Source: an uncultured Chitinophagaceae bacterium (GTDB taxonomy: Bacteria; Bacteroidota; Ignavibacteria; UBA10030; UBA8401). From it: a stretch of DNA of 64,000 nucleotides. The position numbers and the translations under genes were made by a program. This document shows, piece by piece, positions 12,357 through 20,387 of this stretch; within the stretch, counting starts at the first letter, position 1; every line of letters begins with the position of its first letter. The stretch is from the NCBI GenBank assembly GCA_964367235.1, contig CAYIXI010000001.1, positions 14,878 to 78,877 on the forward strand. Reading direction: 5' to 3'. The notes under the pieces are model-generated. The model saw only the letters and a program-made list of their open reading frames with translations, was not told the origin of the DNA and made no database searches.

Positions 12357-14534
12357 GTGATATCAACTGACTCACTTCAATTTGTAAAAGGGATTGGACC
12401 AAAACGGATTCAAGCTCTAAATTTAATTGGCATTAATTCCATATCTGATTTACTCTATTATTTTCCGTACGATTATCTGGATCGCTCAAAAATTGTTAAA
12501 ATAGAAAAACTTAAAAATTTTATAAATAAAAATGAAGAAGTAACAATTGTTGCGGAAATATTTCGACAAGAAACGCGCAGAACCAGAAATGGAAAAAAGA
12601 TTTTTATTTTGACAGTGAAAGATGAAACAGGATTTTTGCCATGTTTGTATTTTCATGGTGCGCATTGGCTCAGCAAAATGTTTAATGTTGGTGATGTTTT
12701 AGCATTATCATCTTTTGTAGAGATTGATAAATATAATCGTCCGCAATTTATTCATTCGGAGCATGATAGACTTTTTGCAATTGATGATGACGACAAAACT
12801 AATTGGAAAGAAAAATTAAATACTGGCGCAATAATTCCTAAATATCATTTAAACGAAGAATTGCGAAAAGTTGGAATTGAACAGAGGCAGTTGCGAAAAA
12901 TAATGCGTGACGCATTAAACAGATATTTAAATTCTGTTGAAGAATATTTACCTCGCGCAATTTTAAATGAACGAGCGCTTTTAAATTTACAATCTGCAAT
13001 TAGCCATCTTCACTTTCCCGATTCACTTGAAAATAAAAATCATGCACTTAAAAGAATTAAATATGACGAAAGTTTTTATTTTCAACTCTTGATTGCATTT
13101 CGCAAAAAGGAAATCGAAGAAGATAGAAATGGAATTAATTGTAAATCGAAAAATATTTTAAACAAAAAACTTTTAAGCGAACTTACTTTTAATTTAACTT
13201 CGGCACAGCAAAAAGTTATTAGTGAAATCTCTCACGACATGTCTTCAACTAAACCAATGAATCGTTTGCTTCAAGGAGATGTTGGAAGTGGAAAAACAAT
13301 TGTTTCATTTTTTGCAATGCTCAGTGCAATCGAAAATAATTTACAAGTTGCATTAATGGCACCAACCGAAATTTTAGCCGAGCAACACTTCGCAACTATA
13401 TCACACTTTGCAAAAAATTTAAATTTAAATATAAGATTGCTTGTCGGGAAGCAAAGTAAAAAACTTCGGAGTGATATTTTGGAAGATATCGGCCGAGGTT
13501 CAGCGCAAATAATTATCGGAACGCATGCGTTATTTCAAAAACATGTTGTGTTTGAAAATTTGGGACTTGTTGTAATTGATGAGCAACATCGTTTTGGAGT
13601 TTCTCAAAGAGCGCAACTTCGTGAAAAAGGAAAATCGCATCCTCATCTTTTGGTGATGACTGCAACTCCAATTCCTCGCTCGCTTGCAATGACTTTATAC
13701 GGCGATTTAGATATTTCAACAATTGATGAAATGCCAAAAAATCGTAAAAAAATTAAAACGGCAATTCGTTTTGATAAAGATAAAGTAAAAATTTATGATT
13801 TCATTCGAAAGGAAATTAGCGAGCAAAAACAAGCCTATATTGTCGTTCCGTTAATTGAGGAATCGGAAAAGGTCAATTACAAATCGGCAATTGATGAGTT
13901 TGAAAATCTCCAAAAAAATATTTTTACAGATTTAAAATTAGGATTATTGCATGGGAAATTAAGCTCCGATGAAAAAAGAATTGTGATGGAAAAATTTGCA
14001 AAAAATAAAATAAATATTTTAGTCTCCACAACAGTTATTGAAGTTGGAATTGATGTAGCGAACGCAACCGTAATGATGATTGAAGATGCTGAAAAATTTG
14101 GGCTCGCACAATTGCATCAATTGCGTGGAAGAGTTGGAAGAGGAACTGAACAATCTTATTGCATTTTAATTTCTAAGTTAGATGAAAAAATAAAAACAAC
14201 TTACTCTGAAAATAAAAAAGAAAATATCGAAAGAATTAAAATTGCAAAAAAAAGATTAGAGACAATGGTTGCGACCAATGATGGATTTAAAATTGCAGAG
14301 GTTGATTTAGAACTTCGTGGCAGTGGTGAATTATTTGGAATGCGACAAGCAGGCGAAGCAAATTTTATGATGTTAGATGTTGTGCATGACACTGAACTTT
14401 TAATTTTTGCGCGAGAAGATACTTCGGCAATTGTTCAAAGCGATCCAAATCTTTTAAGAGACGAACACAAAAAAATAAAAAATATTTTTCAAAAAAGATT
14501 CCAACATCTTCTCTCCTTCGTTCGTTCCGGATAA
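12357..14534 (+). CDS. recG: ATP-dependent DNA helicase RecG (GTG start)
   Basis: Wedge domain + helicase motifs GDVGSGKT, DEQHRFGV, TATPIPRS, QLRGRVGRG; 725 aa. Confidence 0.9.
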   Translation: MISTDSLQFVKGIGPKRIQALNLIGINSISDLLYYFPYDYLDRSKIVKIEKLKNFINKNEEVTIVAEIFRQETRRTRNGKKIFILTVKDETGFLPCLYFHGAHWLSKMFNVGDVLALSSFVEIDKYNRPQFIHSEHDRLFAIDDDDKTNWKEKLNTGAIIPKYHLNEELRKVGIEQRQLRKIMRDALNRYLNSVEEYLPRAILNERALLNLQSAISHLHFPDSLENKNHALKRIKYDESFYFQLLIAFRKKEIEEDRNGINCKSKNILNKKLLSELTFNLTSAQQKVISEISHDMSSTKPMNRLLQGDVGSGKTIVSFFAMLSAIENNLQVALMAPTEILAEQHFATISHFAKNLNLNIRLLVGKQSKKLRSDILEDIGRGSAQIIIGTHALFQKHVVFENLGLVVIDEQHRFGVSQRAQLREKGKSHPHLLVMTATPIPRSLAMTLYGDLDISTIDEMPKNRKKIKTAIRFDKDKVKIYDFIRKEISEQKQAYIVVPLIEESEKVNYKSAIDEFENLQKNIFTDLKLGLLHGKLSSDEKRIVMEKFAKNKINILVSTTVIEVGIDVANATVMMIEDAEKFGLAQLHQLRGRVGRGTEQSYCILISKLDEKIKTTYSENKKENIERIKIAKKRLETMVATNDGFKIAEVDLELRGSGELFGMRQAGEANFMMLDVVHDTELLIFAREDTSAIVQSDPNLLRDEHKKIKNIFQKRFQHLLSFVRSG

Positions 14535-14567: not shown

Positions 14568-14606
14568 TTGACAACTCGATTATAATTCTTATATTTGTAA
14601 TAAGAA
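14568..14606 (+). promoter_or_regulatory. Putative promoter (TTGACA-16-TATATT) overlapped by dyad TTCTTAT-N7-ATAAGAA, upstream of the ATP-grasp/GNAT/KamA cassette
   Basis: TTGACA at 14568-14573 and TATATT at 14590-14595; inverted repeat 14586-14592 / 14600-14606 straddles the -10 and +1 region. Confidence 0.35.
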
Positions 14607-14660
14607 AATGAAATTATTCTATCACAATATGAAAGGTATCGAGCAGTTTATAAATACTGC

Positions 14661-15737
14661 ATGCAAGTTGCACTCCTCTACAACCTGAAGAAAGAAAATT
14701 CTGAATTAAACGGAGCTAATTCAGAAACTTCAAGTCAAAAAACTTTTCAATCCTTAGAAACTCCACAAGAGACTCTCACGCGTATTGATACCTACGCAGA
14801 GTGGGATACTATTGAAACTATAAACGCACTTCGCGATGCCTTGGCAATTCGTCATGATGTTACTTTAATCGAAGCAGATGAATTTGCATTTGAAAAACTT
14901 CGTCTCTTAAAACCTGAAATTGTTTTTAATGTTACTGAAGGAAAATACGGCGCATCGCGTGAAGCACAAATTCCAGCAATGCTTGAAATGTTAGAAATTC
15001 CATACACGGGAAGCGACCCAGTTACTCTTGGAATTTGTTTGGACAAATCTCGCGCAAAAGAAATTCTCTCGTACTATAATATTGCAAATCCAAAATTTAA
15101 AGTTATCAAAGATTTAGAGGAAGAAATTCCAAACGATTTTAGTTTCCCATTAATAGTAAAACCTCTTTTTGAGGGCTCAAGTAAAGGGATTTTTAACAAA
15201 TCGGTTGTTGAAAATATGAACGAATTAACTGAAATCGTAAAAGAAATAATTTCGGAATACAAAGAGCCAGCGTTGATTGAAGAATTTCTTCCGGGAAGAG
15301 AATTTACTGTTGCGATTTTAGGAAATAAAGATAGAGCAAGAATTTTACCAATCGTTGAAATTAAATTTGATGCTTTGCCAAAAGATGTCAAACCAATTTA
15401 TTCGTACGAAGCAAAATGGATTTGGGACCAATCCGAATTTCCACATGATATTTATGAATGTCCCGCGCAAGTTTCAAATGAGCTGAATCAAAAAATAAAA
15501 AACATTTGTTTGAGTACTTATCATACACTTGGTTGCAGAGATTGGGCGAGAGTTGATGTAAGACTTGATGCAAGTGGTGAACCACAAATAATTGAAATTA
15601 ATCCACTTCCAGGAATTTTACCAAAGGCTGAAGATAATTCTTGTTATCCACGAGCGGCGAGAATCGCTGGCTATACTTATAATGAAATGATTAACGCTGT
15701 GCTTGACGAAGCATGTTTGAGAAACGGACTACTATGA
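14661..15737 (+). CDS. D-Ala-D-Ala-ligase-family ATP-grasp ligase, paralog 1
   Basis: Ddl-like three-domain layout; ATP-grasp motifs (PLIVKP ... GSSKGI ... EEFLPGREFTV ... RVDVRLD ... IEINPLPG). Confidence 0.7.
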   Translation: MQVALLYNLKKENSELNGANSETSSQKTFQSLETPQETLTRIDTYAEWDTIETINALRDALAIRHDVTLIEADEFAFEKLRLLKPEIVFNVTEGKYGASREAQIPAMLEMLEIPYTGSDPVTLGICLDKSRAKEILSYYNIANPKFKVIKDLEEEIPNDFSFPLIVKPLFEGSSKGIFNKSVVENMNELTEIVKEIISEYKEPALIEEFLPGREFTVAILGNKDRARILPIVEIKFDALPKDVKPIYSYEAKWIWDQSEFPHDIYECPAQVSNELNQKIKNICLSTYHTLGCRDWARVDVRLDASGEPQIIEINPLPGILPKAEDNSCYPRAARIAGYTYNEMINAVLDEACLRNGLL

Positions 15738-16816
15738 AAAAAAGAATTGCAATAATATATAACGAACCAACAATCTCAACTGAAAATGGAAAAGAATTTA
15801 TTTCTCAAACATCTTTCAATAATAATTTAGATTTTAATTCTGTATCAAATCTTTCTGCAAAATTAATTGACATGTCCGAAGTTGGAGTGCTCGAAGAGAA
15901 AGAAGACATTCAGCGAGTTTTGGAAAAATATAATTACGAAGCTGTAATTTTTAATGTTTCGGAAAACATAAAAGAGTTAATTCAGTTTATTGAAAATGAA
16001 AAGATAGATTTAATTTTTAATTTAGTTGAAGGGCTTGGAGAGGAATCGATTCACGAAATGCATATTGCCGGAATTTACGATTTGCTCGGAAAAAATTATA
16101 CCGGTTCCGCCGCTCGTACACTTGGCATCTGCCTTGATAAAGCAAGAACAAAAGAAATTCTTTCTCATCATAAAATTTTAACTCCAAATTTTACAACTTT
16201 ATATTACGGCGAAAATTTTACAAAAGCTCAAATTAATTTAAAATATCCATTGTTCGTAAAATTTAGAGAGCAAGATGCAAGTTTGGGAATCGACAATAAT
16301 TCTCTCGTAACAACATTTAAGGAATTAAAAGACAAAGTTTTAGATTTATGGTCGCAACATCAAGGTTCTATTATAATAGAAGAGTACATCGATGGACGCG
16401 AATTAAACATCGCGGTTATTGGAAATGAAAAACCAATTGCGATGCCAATTTCTGAAATTAGTTTTGACACTTTGCCAAAAAATTACCCCAAAATTGTTTC
16501 GTACAATTCAAAATGGATGAAAGGCACCGTGGAATATGACCATACAGTTGGCATCTGTCCTGCTGATTTGCCAAAAAATTTAACCACCGAAATGCAAAAA
16601 ATTGCAGTTGAGGCTTTTAAAATTCTTGGCTTGCGAGATTATTCGCGTGTTGATTTTCGTTTGGACGAAAATAATATCCCGTATGTTTTGGAAGTAAATC
16701 CAAATCCGGATATTACTGATGATGCTGGCTTTGCTCGTTCGGCAAAAGCCGCAGGTTACTCTTACGAAGAAATTGTTGCAAAAATTATTGAGATGGCTTT
16801 AAATCGTTCCAAGTAA
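15734..16816 (+). CDS. D-Ala-D-Ala-ligase-family ATP-grasp ligase, paralog 2
   Basis: Same architecture as paralog 1 (about 30-35% identity by eye). ATG 15734 forms an ATGA overlap with the stop of paralog 1; the track start 15713 is in frame but overlaps. Confidence 0.7.
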   Translation: MKKRIAIIYNEPTISTENGKEFISQTSFNNNLDFNSVSNLSAKLIDMSEVGVLEEKEDIQRVLEKYNYEAVIFNVSENIKELIQFIENEKIDLIFNLVEGLGEESIHEMHIAGIYDLLGKNYTGSAARTLGICLDKARTKEILSHHKILTPNFTTLYYGENFTKAQINLKYPLFVKFREQDASLGIDNNSLVTTFKELKDKVLDLWSQHQGSIIIEEYIDGRELNIAVIGNEKPIAMPISEISFDTLPKNYPKIVSYNSKWMKGTVEYDHTVGICPADLPKNLTTEMQKIAVEAFKILGLRDYSRVDFRLDENNIPYVLEVNPNPDITDDAGFARSAKAAGYSYEEIVAKIIEMALNRSK

Positions 16817-16825
16817 TTTTTTAAA

Positions 16826-17302
16826 ATGTCAATTAGAAAATTTGAAAAAAGCGATCGTGAAAATATTTTACATCACATTAAAGCAACAAATGTTTTTAAT
16901 GATGAAGAAGTTGAGATTGCAAAAGAATTAATTGATGTATTTTTAGATGAACCGAATCAAAAAGATTATGATTTATATGTTTATGCTGATGAAGAAAATA
17001 TTGCACAAGGTTATATTTGCATCGGACATACGCCAGCAACAATTGGCACTTACGATTTGTATTGGATAGTTGTGAATCCGAACGAACACAAAAAAGGAAT
17101 TGGTAAAGCGTTGCTCTATTATATTGAAGAGATGTTGAAACTTGTCGGTGGAAATTTGTTGATTGCAGAAACTTCCTCGACTCAAAAATATGATAACACA
17201 AGAAAATTTTATAAGCGAACTAATTTTATCGAACTTGTGCGAATAAAAGAATATTATCGTCCCGACGATGATTTAATAATTTTTGGAAAATATTTAAAAT
17301 AA
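16826..17302 (+). CDS. GNAT-family N-acetyltransferase (158 aa)
   Basis: Acetyl-CoA-binding motif A region NEHKKGIGKALL. Confidence 0.75.
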   Translation: MSIRKFEKSDRENILHHIKATNVFNDEEVEIAKELIDVFLDEPNQKDYDLYVYADEENIAQGYICIGHTPATIGTYDLYWIVVNPNEHKKGIGKALLYYIEEMLKLVGGNLLIAETSSTQKYDNTRKFYKRTNFIELVRIKEYYRPDDDLIIFGKYLK

Positions 17303-17317
17303 CTTACAGGAGATTTT

Positions 17318-18439
17318 ATGGAACTCTGGCAAAAATTGCTAAGAGAAAGTGTTGATTGCCCAAAACATTTAGTTGAAAAGTTTGGTTTCGAACCTAAACT
17401 TGCTGAACAATTAAATAATCTTTTTCATACTCGTATCAATCCATATTATTTGGGATTAATTCGCGAGCCCGGCGATCCGATTTGGTTGCAATGTATGCCA
17501 AATGCTTTGGAGTTAAATGATGACAAAGCTCCACTTGATCCTCTAAATGAAGAAGCCAATAGTCCTGTTCCAAGTATTACTCATCGTTATCCCGATAGAG
17601 TTTTATTTTTAACTACAAGTCAGTGCGCAATGTATTGTCGTTTCTGCACAAGAAAAAGAAAAGTTGGAGACTCTGGAAAAATTTCGATGAAATTTATTCA
17701 ATCTGGTTTGGATTATATTGCCGCGCATCCCGAAGTTCGTGATGTAATTCTTTCTGGTGGCGATCCTTTAATGTTAACCGATGTAATGCTCGAAAAAATT
17801 CTTTCCGGTCTTCGAAAAATTCCACATATCGAAATCATTCGTCTTGGAACAAGAATGCCTTGCGTTCTTCCTCAACGCGTTACGCCAAATCTCGTAAAAA
17901 TGTTGAGCAAATATCATCCAATTTATGTCAATGTTCATTTTAATCATCCTTGGGAATGCACCGATGAGGCAAAAAAAGCTTGTGAAATGTTAGCCGATGC
18001 TGGTTGTCCAGTTGGAAATCAAGCAGTTTTGATGAAAGGGGTAAACGACAATGCCGATGTAATGCTCGAGCTTCATCGAAAACTTTTATCGATGAGAGTT
18101 AGACCTTATTATTTGTATCAAGCCGATATTACGCGCGGTGCAAATCATTTTAGAACTCCGTTAAAAGTTGGACTTGAAATTATGGATAAACTTCGCGGAC
18201 ACACATCTGGTTTAGCAATTCCGGCTTTTGTAATTGATGCGCCCGGTGGTGGCGGAAAAATTCCAATTCTTCCACAATATGTTTTGGGTAGAAAAGATAA
18301 CAAAATTATTTTGCGAAATTATAAATATGATGTTTTTGAATATCCCGATGTTATTGATGATAACACCGGAGACCCAATTGCTGATAAAGAAAAAGTGAGG
18401 AAGAAAGTTATCAAGAAAAAAGAAACCGTTGCGGTTTAA
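17318..18439 (+). CDS. kamA: KamA-family radical-SAM aminomutase (lysine 2,3-aminomutase-like)
   Basis: CAMYCRFCTRKRK radical-SAM cluster motif. PLP/KAM-family motifs GGDPLM, VNVHFNHP, YLYQADITRGANHFRT. 373 aa, a size intermediate between EpmB and clostridial KamA. Confidence 0.8.
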   Translation: MELWQKLLRESVDCPKHLVEKFGFEPKLAEQLNNLFHTRINPYYLGLIREPGDPIWLQCMPNALELNDDKAPLDPLNEEANSPVPSITHRYPDRVLFLTTSQCAMYCRFCTRKRKVGDSGKISMKFIQSGLDYIAAHPEVRDVILSGGDPLMLTDVMLEKILSGLRKIPHIEIIRLGTRMPCVLPQRVTPNLVKMLSKYHPIYVNVHFNHPWECTDEAKKACEMLADAGCPVGNQAVLMKGVNDNADVMLELHRKLLSMRVRPYYLYQADITRGANHFRTPLKVGLEIMDKLRGHTSGLAIPAFVIDAPGGGGKIPILPQYVLGRKDNKIILRNYKYDVFEYPDVIDDNTGDPIADKEKVRKKVIKKKETVAV

Positions 18440-18446
18440 ATTAAAA

Positions 18447-18475
18447 GCCCCGCTAAATCAAGCGGGGTTTTTCGT
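18447..18475 (+). terminator. Rho-independent terminator after kamA-like gene
   Basis: GCCCCGC-N8-GCGGGGT hairpin followed by a TTTTT run. Confidence 0.7.
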
Positions 18476-18509: not shown

Positions 18510-20387
18510 ATGAAAATACCGGAACATATAATAGAAGAAATTCGTCGCTCGATTGATATTGTTGAATTGATTGGAAGTTACAGCCAACTTAAAAAAAGAG
18601 GAAAAAATTTTACTGGACTTTGTCCTTTTCATAAAGAAAAAACTCCATCGTTTAATGTTAGTGCCGATAAAGGATTGTTTTATTGTTTTGGTTGCAAAAA
18701 AAGTGGTGATGTTTTTACTTTTGCGATGGAGACACAAAAAATTTCTTATCCGGAAGCGATAGAATTTTTAGCAGAAAAAGCTGGTGTTAAAATTGAACGA
18801 TCGGAAATTAGTGAAGAAAAAACTTCTGAGCTTGAAAAATTATTTTCTGTAAACTCTACTGTCGCAAAAATATTTTCCAGAAATTTATTTTCATCTGAAG
18901 AAGGAAAGTTTGCGCTGGATTATCTTTCAAAAAGAGGAATCGAAAAAGAATCAATTGATAAATTTCAAATTGGGTTATCATTTAAACAATGGGATAGTTT
19001 ATATAAAGAGGGAACCGAAACAGAAGGGATTTCCGAATCGGAACTTTTGAAATTGGGATTAATCAAAAAAAGGGAAGATGGAAGTTCTTACGATACTTTT
19101 CGCGGAAGAATAATTTTTCCAATTACAAATCCGATGGGAAGAATTTCCGGATTTGGTGCGCGTAAAATTCACGAAGATGATACTCTCGGAAAATACATCA
19201 ACTCGCCCGAAACAATTATTTACAGCAAAAGCAGAATTCTTTACGGTTTATCATTTGCAAAAGATGCAATTAGAAGTAGTGAAAATGTAATTGTCGTCGA
19301 GGGTTACGCAGATTTTATTTCTCTTTTTCAAAATGGAATTAAAAATGTTGTCGCAACAAGTGGCACTGCGCTAACTATTGAGCAAGTAAAATTAATTTCG
19401 CGTTACACAAAAAATATTATTTTTATTTACGATGCAGATTTTGCCGGCTCAAATGCGATGGAGCGCGGAATTGATATTGTTTTAAGTGAAGGGCTCGATG
19501 TGAGAATTGCGCTTTTGCCTGAAGGGGAAGACCCGGATTCATTTGTTAGAAATTTTGGCGCAGAAAAATTTAACGAAATAATTAAATCTGCAGTTAGTTT
19601 TGTTGAGTTTAAAGCGGCGCAATTATTTGAAAAAGGGAAATTTGAAACTGTTGAATCAAAAGCAGTTGCTGTAAGAACGATTGTAGAATCGATTGCCAAA
19701 ATACCTGATAATTTAAAAAGAACTTTTTTTATTAAAGATGTTGCGGAAAAGTTTGGGATTTACGAAACAACTTTATTAAACGAACTTGATAAATTTTTAA
19801 CGCGAACTCCAAAAAGAAATTATGATTTTATAAATCAAACTCAATTTGAACAAAAAGGCGAGAAACCAATTACCAAAAAATTATCTTTACCAATCGAGGA
19901 AAAAGATCTTTTACTTTCAATTTTTGAGCAACCAAATCAAATCATTCCATTTATTTTTCAAAATGTTCATCTGGAAGAATTGCAACATCCAATCGTAAGA
20001 ATTATTATTGAAGAAGTTTTAGAAATGTTTGAAGAAAACCAAAAAATAGATGAACGAATTTTGCAAGAAAGACTTCCGAGCGAAGAATCAAAATCACTTT
20101 TAGCGGAAATTTTATTTTCGCGTTACGAATTAAGTTCTCGTTGGGATGATGTCGGTGCAAGATTAAGTGATGCGCGTTGGTTTGAAATTGCGCTTGGTGC
20201 AATCAAAAAAATTAAAAAAAGATTTTTGCAAGACGAACTTCAAAAAAATAAATTATTACTTCAAGAGCATTCAAGTGCGGGAGAAGACCCAACAATTTAT
20301 TTAGAGCGACAACATCAATTCTTAAATCAAATTAAAGAGATAGATAATATTAAATTGACAAAAGAAATTGATGAAGATGAAAAATAA
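18510..20387 (+). CDS. dnaG: DNA primase
   Basis: Zinc-binding CPFHKEKTPSF ... CFGC, TOPRIM domain (VVEGYADFISL, IYDADFAGSNA). Confidence 0.9.
   Translation: MKIPEHIIEEIRRSIDIVELIGSYSQLKKRGKNFTGLCPFHKEKTPSFNVSADKGLFYCFGCKKSGDVFTFAMETQKISYPEAIEFLAEKAGVKIERSEISEEKTSELEKLFSVNSTVAKIFSRNLFSSEEGKFALDYLSKRGIEKESIDKFQIGLSFKQWDSLYKEGTETEGISESELLKLGLIKKREDGSSYDTFRGRIIFPITNPMGRISGFGARKIHEDDTLGKYINSPETIIYSKSRILYGLSFAKDAIRSSENVIVVEGYADFISLFQNGIKNVVATSGTALTIEQVKLISRYTKNIIFIYDADFAGSNAMERGIDIVLSEGLDVRIALLPEGEDPDSFVRNFGAEKFNEIIKSAVSFVEFKAAQLFEKGKFETVESKAVAVRTIVESIAKIPDNLKRTFFIKDVAEKFGIYETTLLNELDKFLTRTPKRNYDFINQTQFEQKGEKPITKKLSLPIEEKDLLLSIFEQPNQIIPFIFQNVHLEELQHPIVRIIIEEVLEMFEENQKIDERILQERLPSEESKSLLAEILFSRYELSSRWDDVGARLSDARWFEIALGAIKKIKKRFLQDELQKNKLLLQEHSSAGEDPTIYLERQHQFLNQIKEIDNIKLTKEIDEDEK

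Follow-up and report, generated by a model that had tools for sequence, protein, structure and literature searches.

Four adjacent genes in the analysed window (the whole 64,000-nucleotide stretch of DNA) were identified as a conserved cassette of two Ddl-fold ATP-grasp ligases (AG1 and AG2), a GNAT acetyltransferase (GNAT) and a KamA-type aminomutase (KAM), which is read, with a probability of about one half, as a self-contained operon for a non-ribosomal, cytoplasmic small compound containing beta-lysine, predicted to be an N-acetylated di- or tripeptide or oligo-amide. No published function, product, activity or phenotype was found in the literature for this gene set or its members. Occurring from Ignavibacteria to Desulfuromonas and in some archaea, the operon suggests an as yet undescribed small compound containing beta-lysine.

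Organisation of the cassette

In the ORF list of the window, the genes AG1, AG2, GNAT and KAM were co-directional on the forward strand, with intergenic spacings of -4, 9 and 15 nt (Table 1). The start ATG of AG2 at 15734 overlaps the AG1 stop codon as ATGA. A second possible start of AG2 is the in-frame ATG at 15713. The preliminary description of four co-directional, packed genes between recG and dnaG was confirmed in its coordinates and its ATGA overlap.

Table 1. Features of the cassette and its flanks in the window.
Feature	Position	Strand	Description
recG	12357-14534		Flanks the cassette
Promoter-like site	14568-14595	+	TTGACA-16 nt-TATATT; 11 of 12 consensus positions, a consensus match alone
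Dyad	14586-14606	+	TTCTTAT-N7-ATAAGAA; overlaps the -10 hexamer of the promoter-like site
Leader	14631-14660	+	Purine box GAAAGG (14631-14636), then hairpin GCAGT-8 nt-ACTGC (14643-14660) abutting the AG1 ATG
AG1	14661-15737	+	358 aa; putative Ddl-fold ATP-grasp ligase, AG1 type
AG2	15734-16816	+	Putative Ddl-fold ATP-grasp ligase, AG2 type
GNAT	16826-17302	+	158 aa; small N-acetyltransferase; Pfam Acetyltransf_7, _1 and _10
KAM	17318-18439	+	373 aa; KamA/AblA-type radical-SAM, PLP-dependent lysine 2,3-aminomutase without C-terminal zinc tail
Intrinsic-terminator-like hairpin	18443-18472	+	After KAM; 12-bp stem with 6 G-C pairs, 6-nt loop, then TTTTT
dnaG	18510-20387		Flanks the cassette, after the terminator-like hairpin

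The cassette had been ascribed its own promoter and terminator, and both a promoter-like site and a terminator-like hairpin were found at the expected ends. Of 67 Ignavibacteriota loci, 39 had TTGACA-N15-18-TAWWWT within the 150 nt before AG1. The dyad first described as operator-like does exist, and a similar 7-nt dyad was located upstream in just two of the 67 loci; therefore it does not represent a conserved operator and is, by this count, lineage-specific. A purine box (GAAAGG, GAGAGG or GGAGAG) was positioned 18-80 nt ahead of the conserved VAL(V/L)(Y/F)N codons in 58/67 loci. The leader of the window folded no better than shuffled sequence (z = -0.20) and gave no match in an Rfam search, and it is read as a candidate ribosome-binding region.

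A lysine-type 2,3-aminomutase

KAM contains the Pfam domains Radical_SAM and LAM_C, and it aligned with the solved clostridial enzyme 2A5H at E = 7e-121, with 55% identity across 318 aligned residues. Against NCBIfam, KAM passed the KamA subfamily TIGR00238 (292.5, cut-off 199.2), and the best equivalog was AblA with a score of 452.5, under its cut-off of 525.4, while the models for glutamate aminomutase and EpmB scored 419 (cut-off 650) and 242 (cut-off 369), respectively. The KamA of B. subtilis, which is 60% identical to 2A5H, turns L-lysine into beta-lysine, and the identity between EpmB and KamA is no more than about 31% (PMC6522883).

Residues C125, C129, C132, R134, D293 and D330 and the motif GGGGK337 were retained in 79/79 KAM orthologues; R134, D293, D330 and the PLP lysine K337 are the residues with which the solved clostridial enzyme binds the alpha-carboxylate, the epsilon-amine and PLP. 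The Lys/Asn of glutamate 2,3-aminomutase at D293 and D330 was absent from the same 79 orthologues, in line with the earlier preference for lysine over glutamate as substrate. Judged by these residues, KAM is a lysine-type 2,3-aminomutase. The acidic residues binding the epsilon-amine had been sought in VNDNAD and YLYQAD; the latter assignment held, and the former was replaced, as the Asp pair of 2A5H aligned to YLYQAD and VIDAPGGGGK of KAM. Zinc cysteines 268, 375, 377 and 380 were missing from all 79 orthologues, and KAM is thus short because the C-terminal zinc-binding tail is missing, and not because it is EpmB-like, as its size had been taken to indicate.

Two ATP-grasp ligases

The Pfam domain Dala_Dala_lig_C was identified in both AG1 (2.7e-38) and AG2 (1.4e-35), which are 37% identical to each other, in agreement with two tandem Ddl-family ATP-grasps. 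For the AF2 model of AG1 (pLDDT 82.9), the top Foldseek matches in the PDB were all Ddl, with TMt of about 0.8 and 21-26% identity. As Ddl and Van ligases make up all the best matches in sequence and structure, and public annotations state D-alanine--D-alanine ligase, the two proteins could be taken for ordinary murein D-Ala-D-Ala ligase paralogues merely beside kamA. This is hardly credible, since both are under every Ddl cut-off (195.7 for AG1 and 167.2 for AG2 with the top NCBIfam Ddl model, cut-off 243), mur or fts context is absent, and the linkage to KamA and GNAT is kept across phyla, gene fusions included.

The substrate site argues in the same direction. In comparison to Ddl, AG1 carries H63E, Y216W and L282C plus a 4-residue insert, and AG2 carries S150A, Y210V/I, Y216W, G276D, S281A and L282G, thereby losing S150, S281 and L282 and gaining D276; H63E and Y216W occur without exception in both ligases. 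The residues K97, K144, E180, E187, K215, R255, D257, E270 and N272 were invariant in about 80 AG1 orthologues, as were the catalytic residues of AG2, so that in about 80 orthologues of each ligase no ATP, Mg or catalytic residue varies and the D-Ala-site residues are altered. AG1 and AG2 are predicted to be active ligases yet not Ddl. In the NJ tree, the AG1 type, which is always with KamA, splits from the AG2 type, which is the GNAT-fused one, and the sole ligase of KamA+AG loci falls in the AG1 clade. By this topology, the AG1 type is the universal KamA partner, KamA+AG-only loci included.

Distribution, linkage and gene fusions

The order AG1-AG2-GNAT-KAM was observed in 70 of the 71 Ignavibacteriota loci with room for it, which is an arrangement far beyond chance, and the cassette is core and syntenic in Ignavibacteriota of freshwater, groundwater and soil. 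An intact cassette was present in 5/5 Desulfuromonadales loci with differing flanks, in at least three distinct contexts, and was also carried by loci L085, L086, L090 and L092. In Bathyarchaeia the order is rearranged to AG1-KAM-AG2::GNAT, and L094 has KAM-AG-AG-GNAT; the co-occurrence of the ligases with KamA and GNAT, which the first description left to be tabulated, is thus conserved over phyla and into archaea. Shorter forms are KAM-AG-AG in five loci from soil or peat, and KAM-AG alone in a Rhizomicrobium MAG (L097), despite room for a second ligase, and in L095, L100 and L105, but on short contigs.

Fusions of AG2::GNAT (498-552 aa) were confirmed in 5/5 and those of AG::AG in 3/3 proteins tested, and both support coupling of the functions. 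GNAT was lacking in L047 and in the KAM-AG(-AG) loci; GNAT is dispensable in some lineages, and acetylation is therefore no intrinsic part of the core chemistry. Likewise, AG-family members without any KamA (L077, L084, L087 and L088) imply that the ligase family is not confined to beta-lysine. A GNAT-HDAC-family fusion gene adjoins the cassette in two of the five Desulfuromonadales loci, and this neighbour supports an acetylated-amine small molecule.

The acetyltransferase and the ablAB reading

The gene identities originally proposed for GNAT and the KamA-type aminomutase agreed with the Pfam domain calls. GNAT matched the NCBIfam RimI model weakly (35, cut-off 86) and gave no match to the AblB model TIGR03827; by this profile, GNAT is not AblB. 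The nearest solved protein was 2R7H (E = 6.7e-32), with the title "putative D-alanine N-acetyltransferase of GNAT family", which assigns no function to its protein. Motifs kept over 75 GNAT orthologues include DLYWI, G.G..L, ETSS and TR.FY.

AblA being the best-scoring model for KAM, with GNAT directly upstream, would also suit a plain N-epsilon-acetyl-beta-lysine osmolyte pathway like AblA/AblB or yodP-kamA, in which the ATP-grasps would be unrelated or modulating, and KamA+GNAT pairs routinely receive the annotation ablAB, among relatives in Pelobacter carbinolicus (PMC3543383), for example, and in digester MAGs (PMC11201294). However, the small GNAT is without an AblB match and is elsewhere fused to AG2, not to KAM; AG1 is the constant neighbour of this KamA clade, whereas GNAT may be missing; and the four genes remain together in nearly all Ignavibacteriota loci, which makes such a pathway quite unlikely.

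Possible protein, polymer and envelope targets

The cassette is housekeeping-like (core, syntenic, by recG and dnaG), and RimI, the weak named match of GNAT, is a ribosomal-protein acetyltransferase. These features could indicate protein modification, the ATP-grasps putting beta-lysine or a short beta-lysyl chain on a protein such as EF-P independently of EpmA, like RimK, LysX or TTL tagging; in E. coli, EpmB-made beta-lysine goes onto EF-P (PMC6522883). The EF-P route, raised at the outset as an alternative, is disfavoured, and protein modification in general appears improbable: KAM is AblA/KamA-like (452 against 242 bits for EpmB, and 55% to 2A5H), neither efp nor epmA nor any further recurrent target gene was present in the window or in loci L001-L087, the Desulfuromonadales flanks vary freely, and the module occurs in Bathyarchaeia. 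The aIF5A of Bathyarchaeia is modified by hypusination.

Two distinct ligases would suit backbone and branch, or initiation and elongation, of a cationic beta-lysine oligomer or polymer (cyanophycin- or poly-lysine-like), or beta-lysine might be added onto an envelope precursor, for which the ATP-grasp D-aspartate ligase, adding to a peptidoglycan precursor, is a model. A Peptidase_S58 gene, of a family that includes beta-aminopeptidases, follows the AG::AG fusions and suggests a synthesis/degradation pair; in L093 and L097, the region upstream of KAM-AG encodes PMT_2 (ArnT-like) membrane glycosyltransferases; and some AG1-type members have acidic residues in the acceptor site (E at 216, D at 282). 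Such a product is nevertheless doubtful, as primer, carrier, export and membrane-anchoring genes are not consistently linked, Pfam identified neither a membrane nor a secretion domain in the four proteins, neighbours of the S58 and PMT_2 kinds are confined to distant sub-clades, the S58 loci being without KamA, and Ddl-family enzymes are known to form single amide bonds.

Proposed pathway and product

For the small cytoplasmic beta-lysine compound, the first step would be the conversion of free L-lysine to beta-lysine by KAM, because the residues holding the alpha-carboxylate, the epsilon-amine and PLP are fully conserved. The AG1-type ligase would then activate a carboxylate as acyl phosphate and make the first amide bond involving beta-lysine, as suggested by its constant place beside this KamA clade, its Ddl catalytic residues and its non-Ddl substrate pocket. 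A second amide bond may be formed by the AG2-type ligase and a free amine capped by GNAT with acetyl-CoA, two steps taken as consecutive because other lineages have AG2 and GNAT fused into one polypeptide. The product, predicted to be a beta-lysyl di- or tripeptide (or oligo-amide) with an N-acetyl group, would remain in the cytoplasm as a compatible-solute-like or polyamine-like metabolite. A purely salt-induced osmolyte would suit badly the core, syntenic status of the cassette in Ignavibacteriota from freshwater, groundwater and soil. Genes for an exporter, an importer or a hydrolase were not consistently linked to the cassette.

Comparison with known systems

AblA/AblB make N-epsilon-acetyl-beta-lysine. 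In AblA/AblB of methanogens and YodP-KamA of Bacillus, as in the cassette, a KamA-family aminomutase gene lies beside a GNAT gene, and KAM keeps all lysine-binding residues; the cassette differs in its generic 158-aa GNAT, in two integral ATP-grasps, one of them GNAT-fused in relatives, and, from AblA, in a KAM that is under the AblA cut-off and without the zinc tail. EpmA/EpmB likewise involve a short, zinc-tail-less KamA-family aminomutase that makes beta-lysine for ligation, a role that is predicted for KAM. However, KAM scores far lower on EpmB than on AblA, the ligase is an ATP-grasp and not a class II aaRS paralogue like EpmA, and the cassette is without efp linkage in the window and L001-L087 and is present in archaea.

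The cassette ligases agree with Ddl and VanA, the D-Ala-D-Ala and D-Ala-D-lactate ligases, in the three-domain fold and in every ATP, Mg and catalytic residue, and they differ in scores under the cut-offs, altered substrate-site residues and gene context. Ngg/AsnO and Nat8l with RIMKLA/B, of which the products are N-acetylglutaminylglutamine amide and N-acetyl-Asp-Glu, follow a similar logic, in that a GNAT and an ATP-grasp yield an N-acetylated small peptide and may be fused, as in AG2::GNAT. Their ligases are RimK-like, whereas those of the cassette are Ddl-like; GNAT is N-terminal in Ngg and C-terminal in AG2::GNAT; the cassette has no amidotransferase partner, unlike Ngg/AsnO; and neither system has the radical-SAM beta-amino-acid step. 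That step has its likeness in PylB/PylC of pyrrolysine biosynthesis, where a radical-SAM lysine mutase yields an isomer and an ATP-grasp ligase joins the isomer by an amide bond.

Organisation of the cassette

The four-gene cassette, placed by the preliminary description between recG and dnaG, was confirmed in the window in its ORFs, coordinates and packing. It consists of two ATP-grasp ligase genes (AG1 and AG2), an acetyltransferase gene (GNAT) and a gene for a KamA-type lysine 2,3-aminomutase (KAM), which are all co-directional and separated by intergenic gaps of −4, 9 and 15 nt, with the end of recG at 14534 and the start of dnaG at 18510. The stop codon of AG1 and the ATG of AG2 overlap as ATGA, and an alternative upstream ATG for AG2 is present at 15713. 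The G+C content of the cassette (0.33–0.34) equals that of the remaining window, and the cassette therefore looks native.

Features of the cassette in the window (first six lines) and of the related loci (L numbers), in coordinates of the respective sequence
Feature	Position	Strand	Description
Promoter-like site	14568-14595	+	TTGACA-16-TATATT, consensus match
AG1	14661-15737	+	ORF, 358 aa; Pfam Dala_Dala_lig_C
AG2	15734-16816	+	ORF, 360 aa; Pfam Dala_Dala_lig_C
GNAT	16826-17302	+	ORF, 158 aa; Pfam GNAT domains
KAM	17318-18439	+	ORF, 373 aa; Pfam Radical_SAM and LAM_C
Hairpin	18443-18472	+	12 bp, followed by a T run; downstream of KAM
GNAT-HDAC fusion, L066	5794-7575	-	Histone-deacetylase-family (acetylpolyamine-amidohydrolase-like) domain
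GNAT-HDAC fusion, L081	7891-9636	+	Histone-deacetylase-family (acetylpolyamine-amidohydrolase-like) domain
Cassette, L047	9147-11348		Lacks GNAT
Cassette, L089	4691-8497		Archaeal contig
Cassette region, L090	3486-10518		Other bacterial locus
AG::AG and Peptidase_S58, L084	322-3509		KamA absent
AG::AG and Peptidase_S58, L088	3181-6368		KamA absent
AG2-type::GNAT fusion, L087	7001-8563		Wallbacteria
PMT_2 and KAM-AG, L093	1853-5277		Soil or alphaproteobacterial type
PMT_2 and KAM-AG, L097	3200-5275		Soil or alphaproteobacterial type

The promoter-like motif was found upstream of AG1 in 39 of 67 related loci; a dyad comparable to the operator-like one described earlier was present in just two of the 67, and is thus not conserved. 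The AG1 leader (14600–14660 in the window) is conserved at the nucleotide level across the related loci L001–L080. In it, a TTCAAC- or TCACAA-like element precedes a purine box (GAAAGG, GAGAGG or GGAGAG), and this box is widely conserved 30–45 nt ahead of the annotated AG1 start. A conserved in-frame TTG directly 3′ of the purine box is probably the true AG1 start in several lineages, and in loci L001–L021 a four-codon mini-ORF (TTG GTA CTC TTY TGA) ends against the AG1 ATG. The leader is tentatively read as a ribosome-binding region. A structured riboswitch or leader RNA was rejected, since Rfam returned no match in the window region or in seven related loci, and the window leader folded no better than shuffled sequence (z = −0.20, no significant structure). 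A function in anti-phage defence was likewise rejected, as none of the four proteins had a PADLOC match.

Conservation and distribution

The 80 related loci and the closest homologues belong nearly all to Ignavibacteriota or to MAGs named “Bacteroidota bacterium”. According to tblastn searches of the 80 loci, the complete set of four genes, in unchanged order, is present in 70 of the 71 Ignavibacteriota loci with enough sequence, the sole exception (L047) having lost GNAT and retaining AG1, AG2 and KAM with a gap of about 80 nt between the latter two. In these Ignavibacteriota loci, median identity was highest for KAM (79%), followed by AG1 (58%), GNAT (50%) and AG2 (49%). In 50 of 63 loci, recG was found upstream at a distance of no more than 1.5 kb. 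In Desulfuromonadales, the order AG1-AG2-GNAT-KAM was intact in 5/5 loci with at least three distinct flanking contexts; the carriers include Desulfuromonas versatilis, Geoalkalibacter halelectricus and G. ferrihydriticus. The cassette behaves as a self-contained unit. Together with an archaeal copy, these counts substantiate the linkage of the ligase genes to kamA and GNAT that had been noticed in the window.

The cassette was also found in the other bacterial loci L085, L086, L090 and L092. In L090, recG and AG1 are each divided into several called genes, by frameshifts or assembly errors, and an additional 245-aa ORF with no Pfam match lies between AG2 and GNAT.

The archaeal contig (L089) carries the arrangement AG1-KAM-AG2::GNAT, and the relatives of its AG1 at 84% and 67% identity are named Candidatus Bathyarchaeia. 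The Bathyarchaeia AG1 shares 47–58% identity with AG1 proteins of bacteria and is surrounded by bacterial matches in the search output, which suggests that archaea acquired this copy from bacteria. Directly downstream, on the opposite strand, lies an AA_permease_2 gene. An AG1 homologue labelled [Eubacterium] cellulosolvens in NCBI (P0466) is 65% identical to the Bathyarchaeia protein; contamination, mis-binning or real transfer could account for the label.

Rearranged and reduced forms were the order KAM-AG-AG-GNAT in L094, KAM-AG-AG without GNAT in five soil or peat loci, and KAM-AG alone in L097, where the ligase is that of a Rhizomicrobium MAG according to NCBI and room for a second ligase exists. 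The short contigs L095, L100 and L105 show KAM-AG only. The KAM proteins of the rearranged and KAM-AG(-AG) loci share one NCBIfam profile. Directly upstream of KAM-AG in L093 and L097 are genes for PMT_2 (ArnT-like, GT-C) membrane glycosyltransferases.

Relatives of AG1 were confirmed in at least 537 stretches in a genome scan with one genome per species, and an exhaustive HMMER search with AG2 as query (E ≤ 1e-30) gave 1278 clusters of the ligase family at 50% identity.

Predicted lysine 2,3-aminomutase

The KAM protein is identical to MEK7818512.1 of a “Bacteroidota bacterium” MAG in NCBI, and aligns with the solved lysine 2,3-aminomutase of Clostridium subterminale (2A5H, whose residue numbers are used here) at 55% identity across 318 residues (E = 7e-121). 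Residue conservation was followed in 79 cassette-linked orthologues aligned to 2A5H, the Desulfuromonadales and archaeal copies included. The equivalents of the radical-SAM cysteines C125, C129 and C132 (CxxxCxxC, here CAMYCRFC) are present in the window protein and in all 79 orthologues, and the PLP-binding lysine K337 in GGGGK, as well as R134, D293 and D330, is kept in 79/79. In the clostridial enzyme, R134 binds the alpha-carboxylate, and D293 and D330 the epsilon-ammonium, of lysine; since these contact residues are invariant, KAM should act on free L-lysine. In glutamate 2,3-aminomutase the positions of D293 and D330 are occupied by Lys and Asn. The earlier preference for lysine over glutamate as substrate was supported, with Asp at both positions in every orthologue and neither Lys nor Asn, and with a score of 419 against the glutamate aminomutase model TIGR04368 (cut-off 650). 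Of the two motifs in which the aspartates contacting the epsilon-amine had been placed, YLYQAD does hold D293, whereas VNDNAD was misassigned, D330 being located in VIDAPGGGGK. The zinc-binding cysteines C268, C375, C377 and C380 of 2A5H are missing in all 79 orthologues.

The KamA subfamily model TIGR00238 was the sole NCBIfam model passed by KAM (292.5, cut-off 199.2). Against the AblA model TIGR03820 the score was 452.5 (cut-off 525.4), a shortfall due to the absence of the C-terminal part, as only profile positions 43–360 of 417 are covered; ATP-grasp-linked KAM proteins of other clades scored 452–483. The arginine aminomutase model gave 331 (cut-off 600), and the EpmB model TIGR03821 gave 242.3 (cut-off 369.3; relatives 239–261). 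Bacillus subtilis KamA, which is 60% identical to 2A5H, makes beta-lysine from L-lysine, and KamA and EpmB share only about 31% identity (PMC6522883).

These scores bear on the modification of a protein by beta-lysine, for which the preliminary description had proposed EF-P as a target. Such a route is disfavoured and appears very unlikely, with an aminomutase that is AblA-like rather than EpmB-like, ligases that are Ddl-like rather than RimK/LysX-like, a module present in Bathyarchaeia, and no linkage to efp, which tblastn with E. coli EF-P did not find in the window or in loci L001–L087.

ATP-grasp ligases

AG1 and AG2, at present annotated as “D-alanine--D-alanine ligase”, are paralogues of 37% identity, and both have the three-domain ATP-grasp fold with ATP, Mg and catalytic residues as in Ddl. 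When about 80 orthologues of each paralogue were mapped onto E. coli DdlB, K97, K144, E180, E187, K215, R255, D257, E270 and N272 were invariant in both, and since these are the ATP, Mg and catalytic residues, AG1 and AG2 should both be active enzymes. The D-Ala site is altered by the changes H63E and Y216W, invariant in both sets of orthologues. In addition, AG1 keeps S150 and S281 and has L282C with a 4-residue insert, and AG2 has S150A, Y210V/I, G276D, S281A and L282G. The E15 region of DdlB aligned ambiguously with both proteins; the conserved motifs AEWD in AG1 and SE.G in AG2 may supply the equivalent Glu.

The best NCBIfam Ddl model, NF002378 (cut-off 243), gave 195.7 for AG1 and 167.2 for AG2, and the Ddl equivalog models were missed by a far wider margin. 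With recG, dnaG, GNAT and KamA as neighbours there is no murein or cell-division context, and the search for a canonical ddl nearby with DdlB as reference returned AG1 and AG2 as sole matches. As judged from sequence, AG1 and AG2 are not D-Ala-D-Ala ligases, and the possibility that they are ordinary ddl paralogues sharing the fold is effectively excluded by the Ddl scores below cut-off, the altered D-Ala site and the conserved linkage to kamA.

The neighbour-joining tree divided the ligases into two types: the AG1 type holds every first ligase adjoining KamA, the sole ligase of the KamA-plus-AG loci and both halves of an AG::AG fusion, and the AG2 type holds the paralogue fused to GNAT. The specificity-type positions vary across AG1 sub-clades, with W, E or N/Q at 216 and C, D or G at 282, and with E at 216 accompanied by D at 282 in the alpha-type AG1. 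Such variation is expected if the acceptor substrate differs among sub-clades.

Acetyltransferase, fusions and neighbouring genes

The GNAT protein matched Pfam Acetyltransf_1, _7 and _10 above their cut-offs and has the conserved G.G..L motif. The AblB model TIGR03827 gave no match at E ≤ 0.01, weak RimI and generic GNAT matches being seen, and the closest solved relative, 2R7H (E = 6.7e-32), probably a protein of Desulfovibrio alaskensis G20, is named only “putative D-alanine N-acetyltransferase”. The cassette GNAT is a generic acetyltransferase. Members of the ligase family of 498–552 aa were AG::GNAT fusions in 5/5 tested, and those of 680–790 aa were AG::AG fusions in 3/3 tested. Plain synthesis of N-acetyl-beta-lysine of the ablAB type, for which a nearby KamA and GNAT pair is easily taken, is highly improbable here, as GNAT lacks an AblB match and is fused to AG2 in other lineages, and the constant partner of KamA is AG1, not GNAT.

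In the Wallbacteria locus L087, an AG2-type ligase is fused to another GNAT subtype, Acetyltransf_3 (RimJ/RimL-like), and stands alone, with no KamA or second ligase, which makes the pairing of AG2 with GNAT older than the beta-lysine link, or wider in scope. L084 and L088, which have no KamA, encode a 682-aa AG::AG protein whose halves both belong to the AG1 type. The next gene overlaps it by 4 nt and codes for a Peptidase_S58 (DmpA/BapA family); together the two may make and hydrolyse some other peptide. A GNAT-HDAC-family fusion of 581–593 aa lies directly beside the cassette in 2/5 Desulfuromonadales loci and was absent from the Ignavibacteriota loci; where present, it hints at an acetylation and deacetylation cycle, which it would fit, on an amine-rich small molecule. 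Both the HDAC-GNAT and the S58 genes were rejected as universal partners of the cassette, being limited to sub-clades.

Synthesis of a polymer or decoration of the envelope would draw on the Peptidase_S58 genes that follow the KamA-less AG::AG fusions and on the two loci with PMT_2 upstream of KAM-AG, and is considered unlikely. A further proposal, that ligases of the AG1/AG2 type form a new ATP-grasp class of beta-lysine ligases which load a macromolecule with beta-lysine or an acetyl-beta-lysyl chain, seems rather improbable; candidate targets would be an envelope precursor or, in EpmA-less bacteria, a ribosomal protein or translation factor. If true, it would mean a previously unknown and widely distributed modification system, not a small-metabolite pathway.

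Proposed pathway and comparison with known systems

The reading preferred here, with a probability of roughly one half, is that the cassette encodes a small-molecule pathway with an N-acetylated beta-lysyl di- or tripeptide or oligo-amide as product. In this pathway, KAM would convert free lysine to beta-lysine, and AG1 would form the first amide bond involving beta-lysine. Two further, coupled reactions, formation of a second amide bond and N-acetyl capping, would then fall to AG2 and GNAT. A strictly salt-induced osmolyte role fits poorly with a core operon of freshwater and soil lineages.

All four enzyme families are already known, and the cassette is classed as a variant of known beta-lysine metabolism that is widespread, mis-annotated and experimentally tractable. 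No curated NCBIfam model exists for the gene combination, for the tail-less KamA clade or for the ligase subfamilies AG1 and AG2, and full-text literature searches found no paper on the gene set, with an earlier mention possible, for instance in the Iyer/Aravind amidoligase survey of 2009. Through the module, beta-lysine would also serve as a building block of amides made by ATP-grasp enzymes, which would be its fourth use. It is no rare curiosity, being a core syntenic operon in Ignavibacteriota which is found also in Desulfuromonadales, an alphaproteobacterial MAG and Bathyarchaeia. Metabolic reconstructions that follow its present annotation would mis-assign both the cell-wall and the osmolyte capacity of these common anaerobes. 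With Desulfuromonas versatilis, Geoalkalibacter halelectricus and G. ferrihydriticus as cultured carriers and four small genes in a self-contained unit, the system is directly testable.

Ngg and AsnO make N-acetylglutaminylglutamine amide, and Nat8l with RIMKLA/B makes N-acetyl-Asp-Glu; the logic of both pathways is parallel to that proposed for the cassette. In PylB and PylC, as in the cassette, a radical-SAM lysine mutase is paired with an ATP-grasp ligase.
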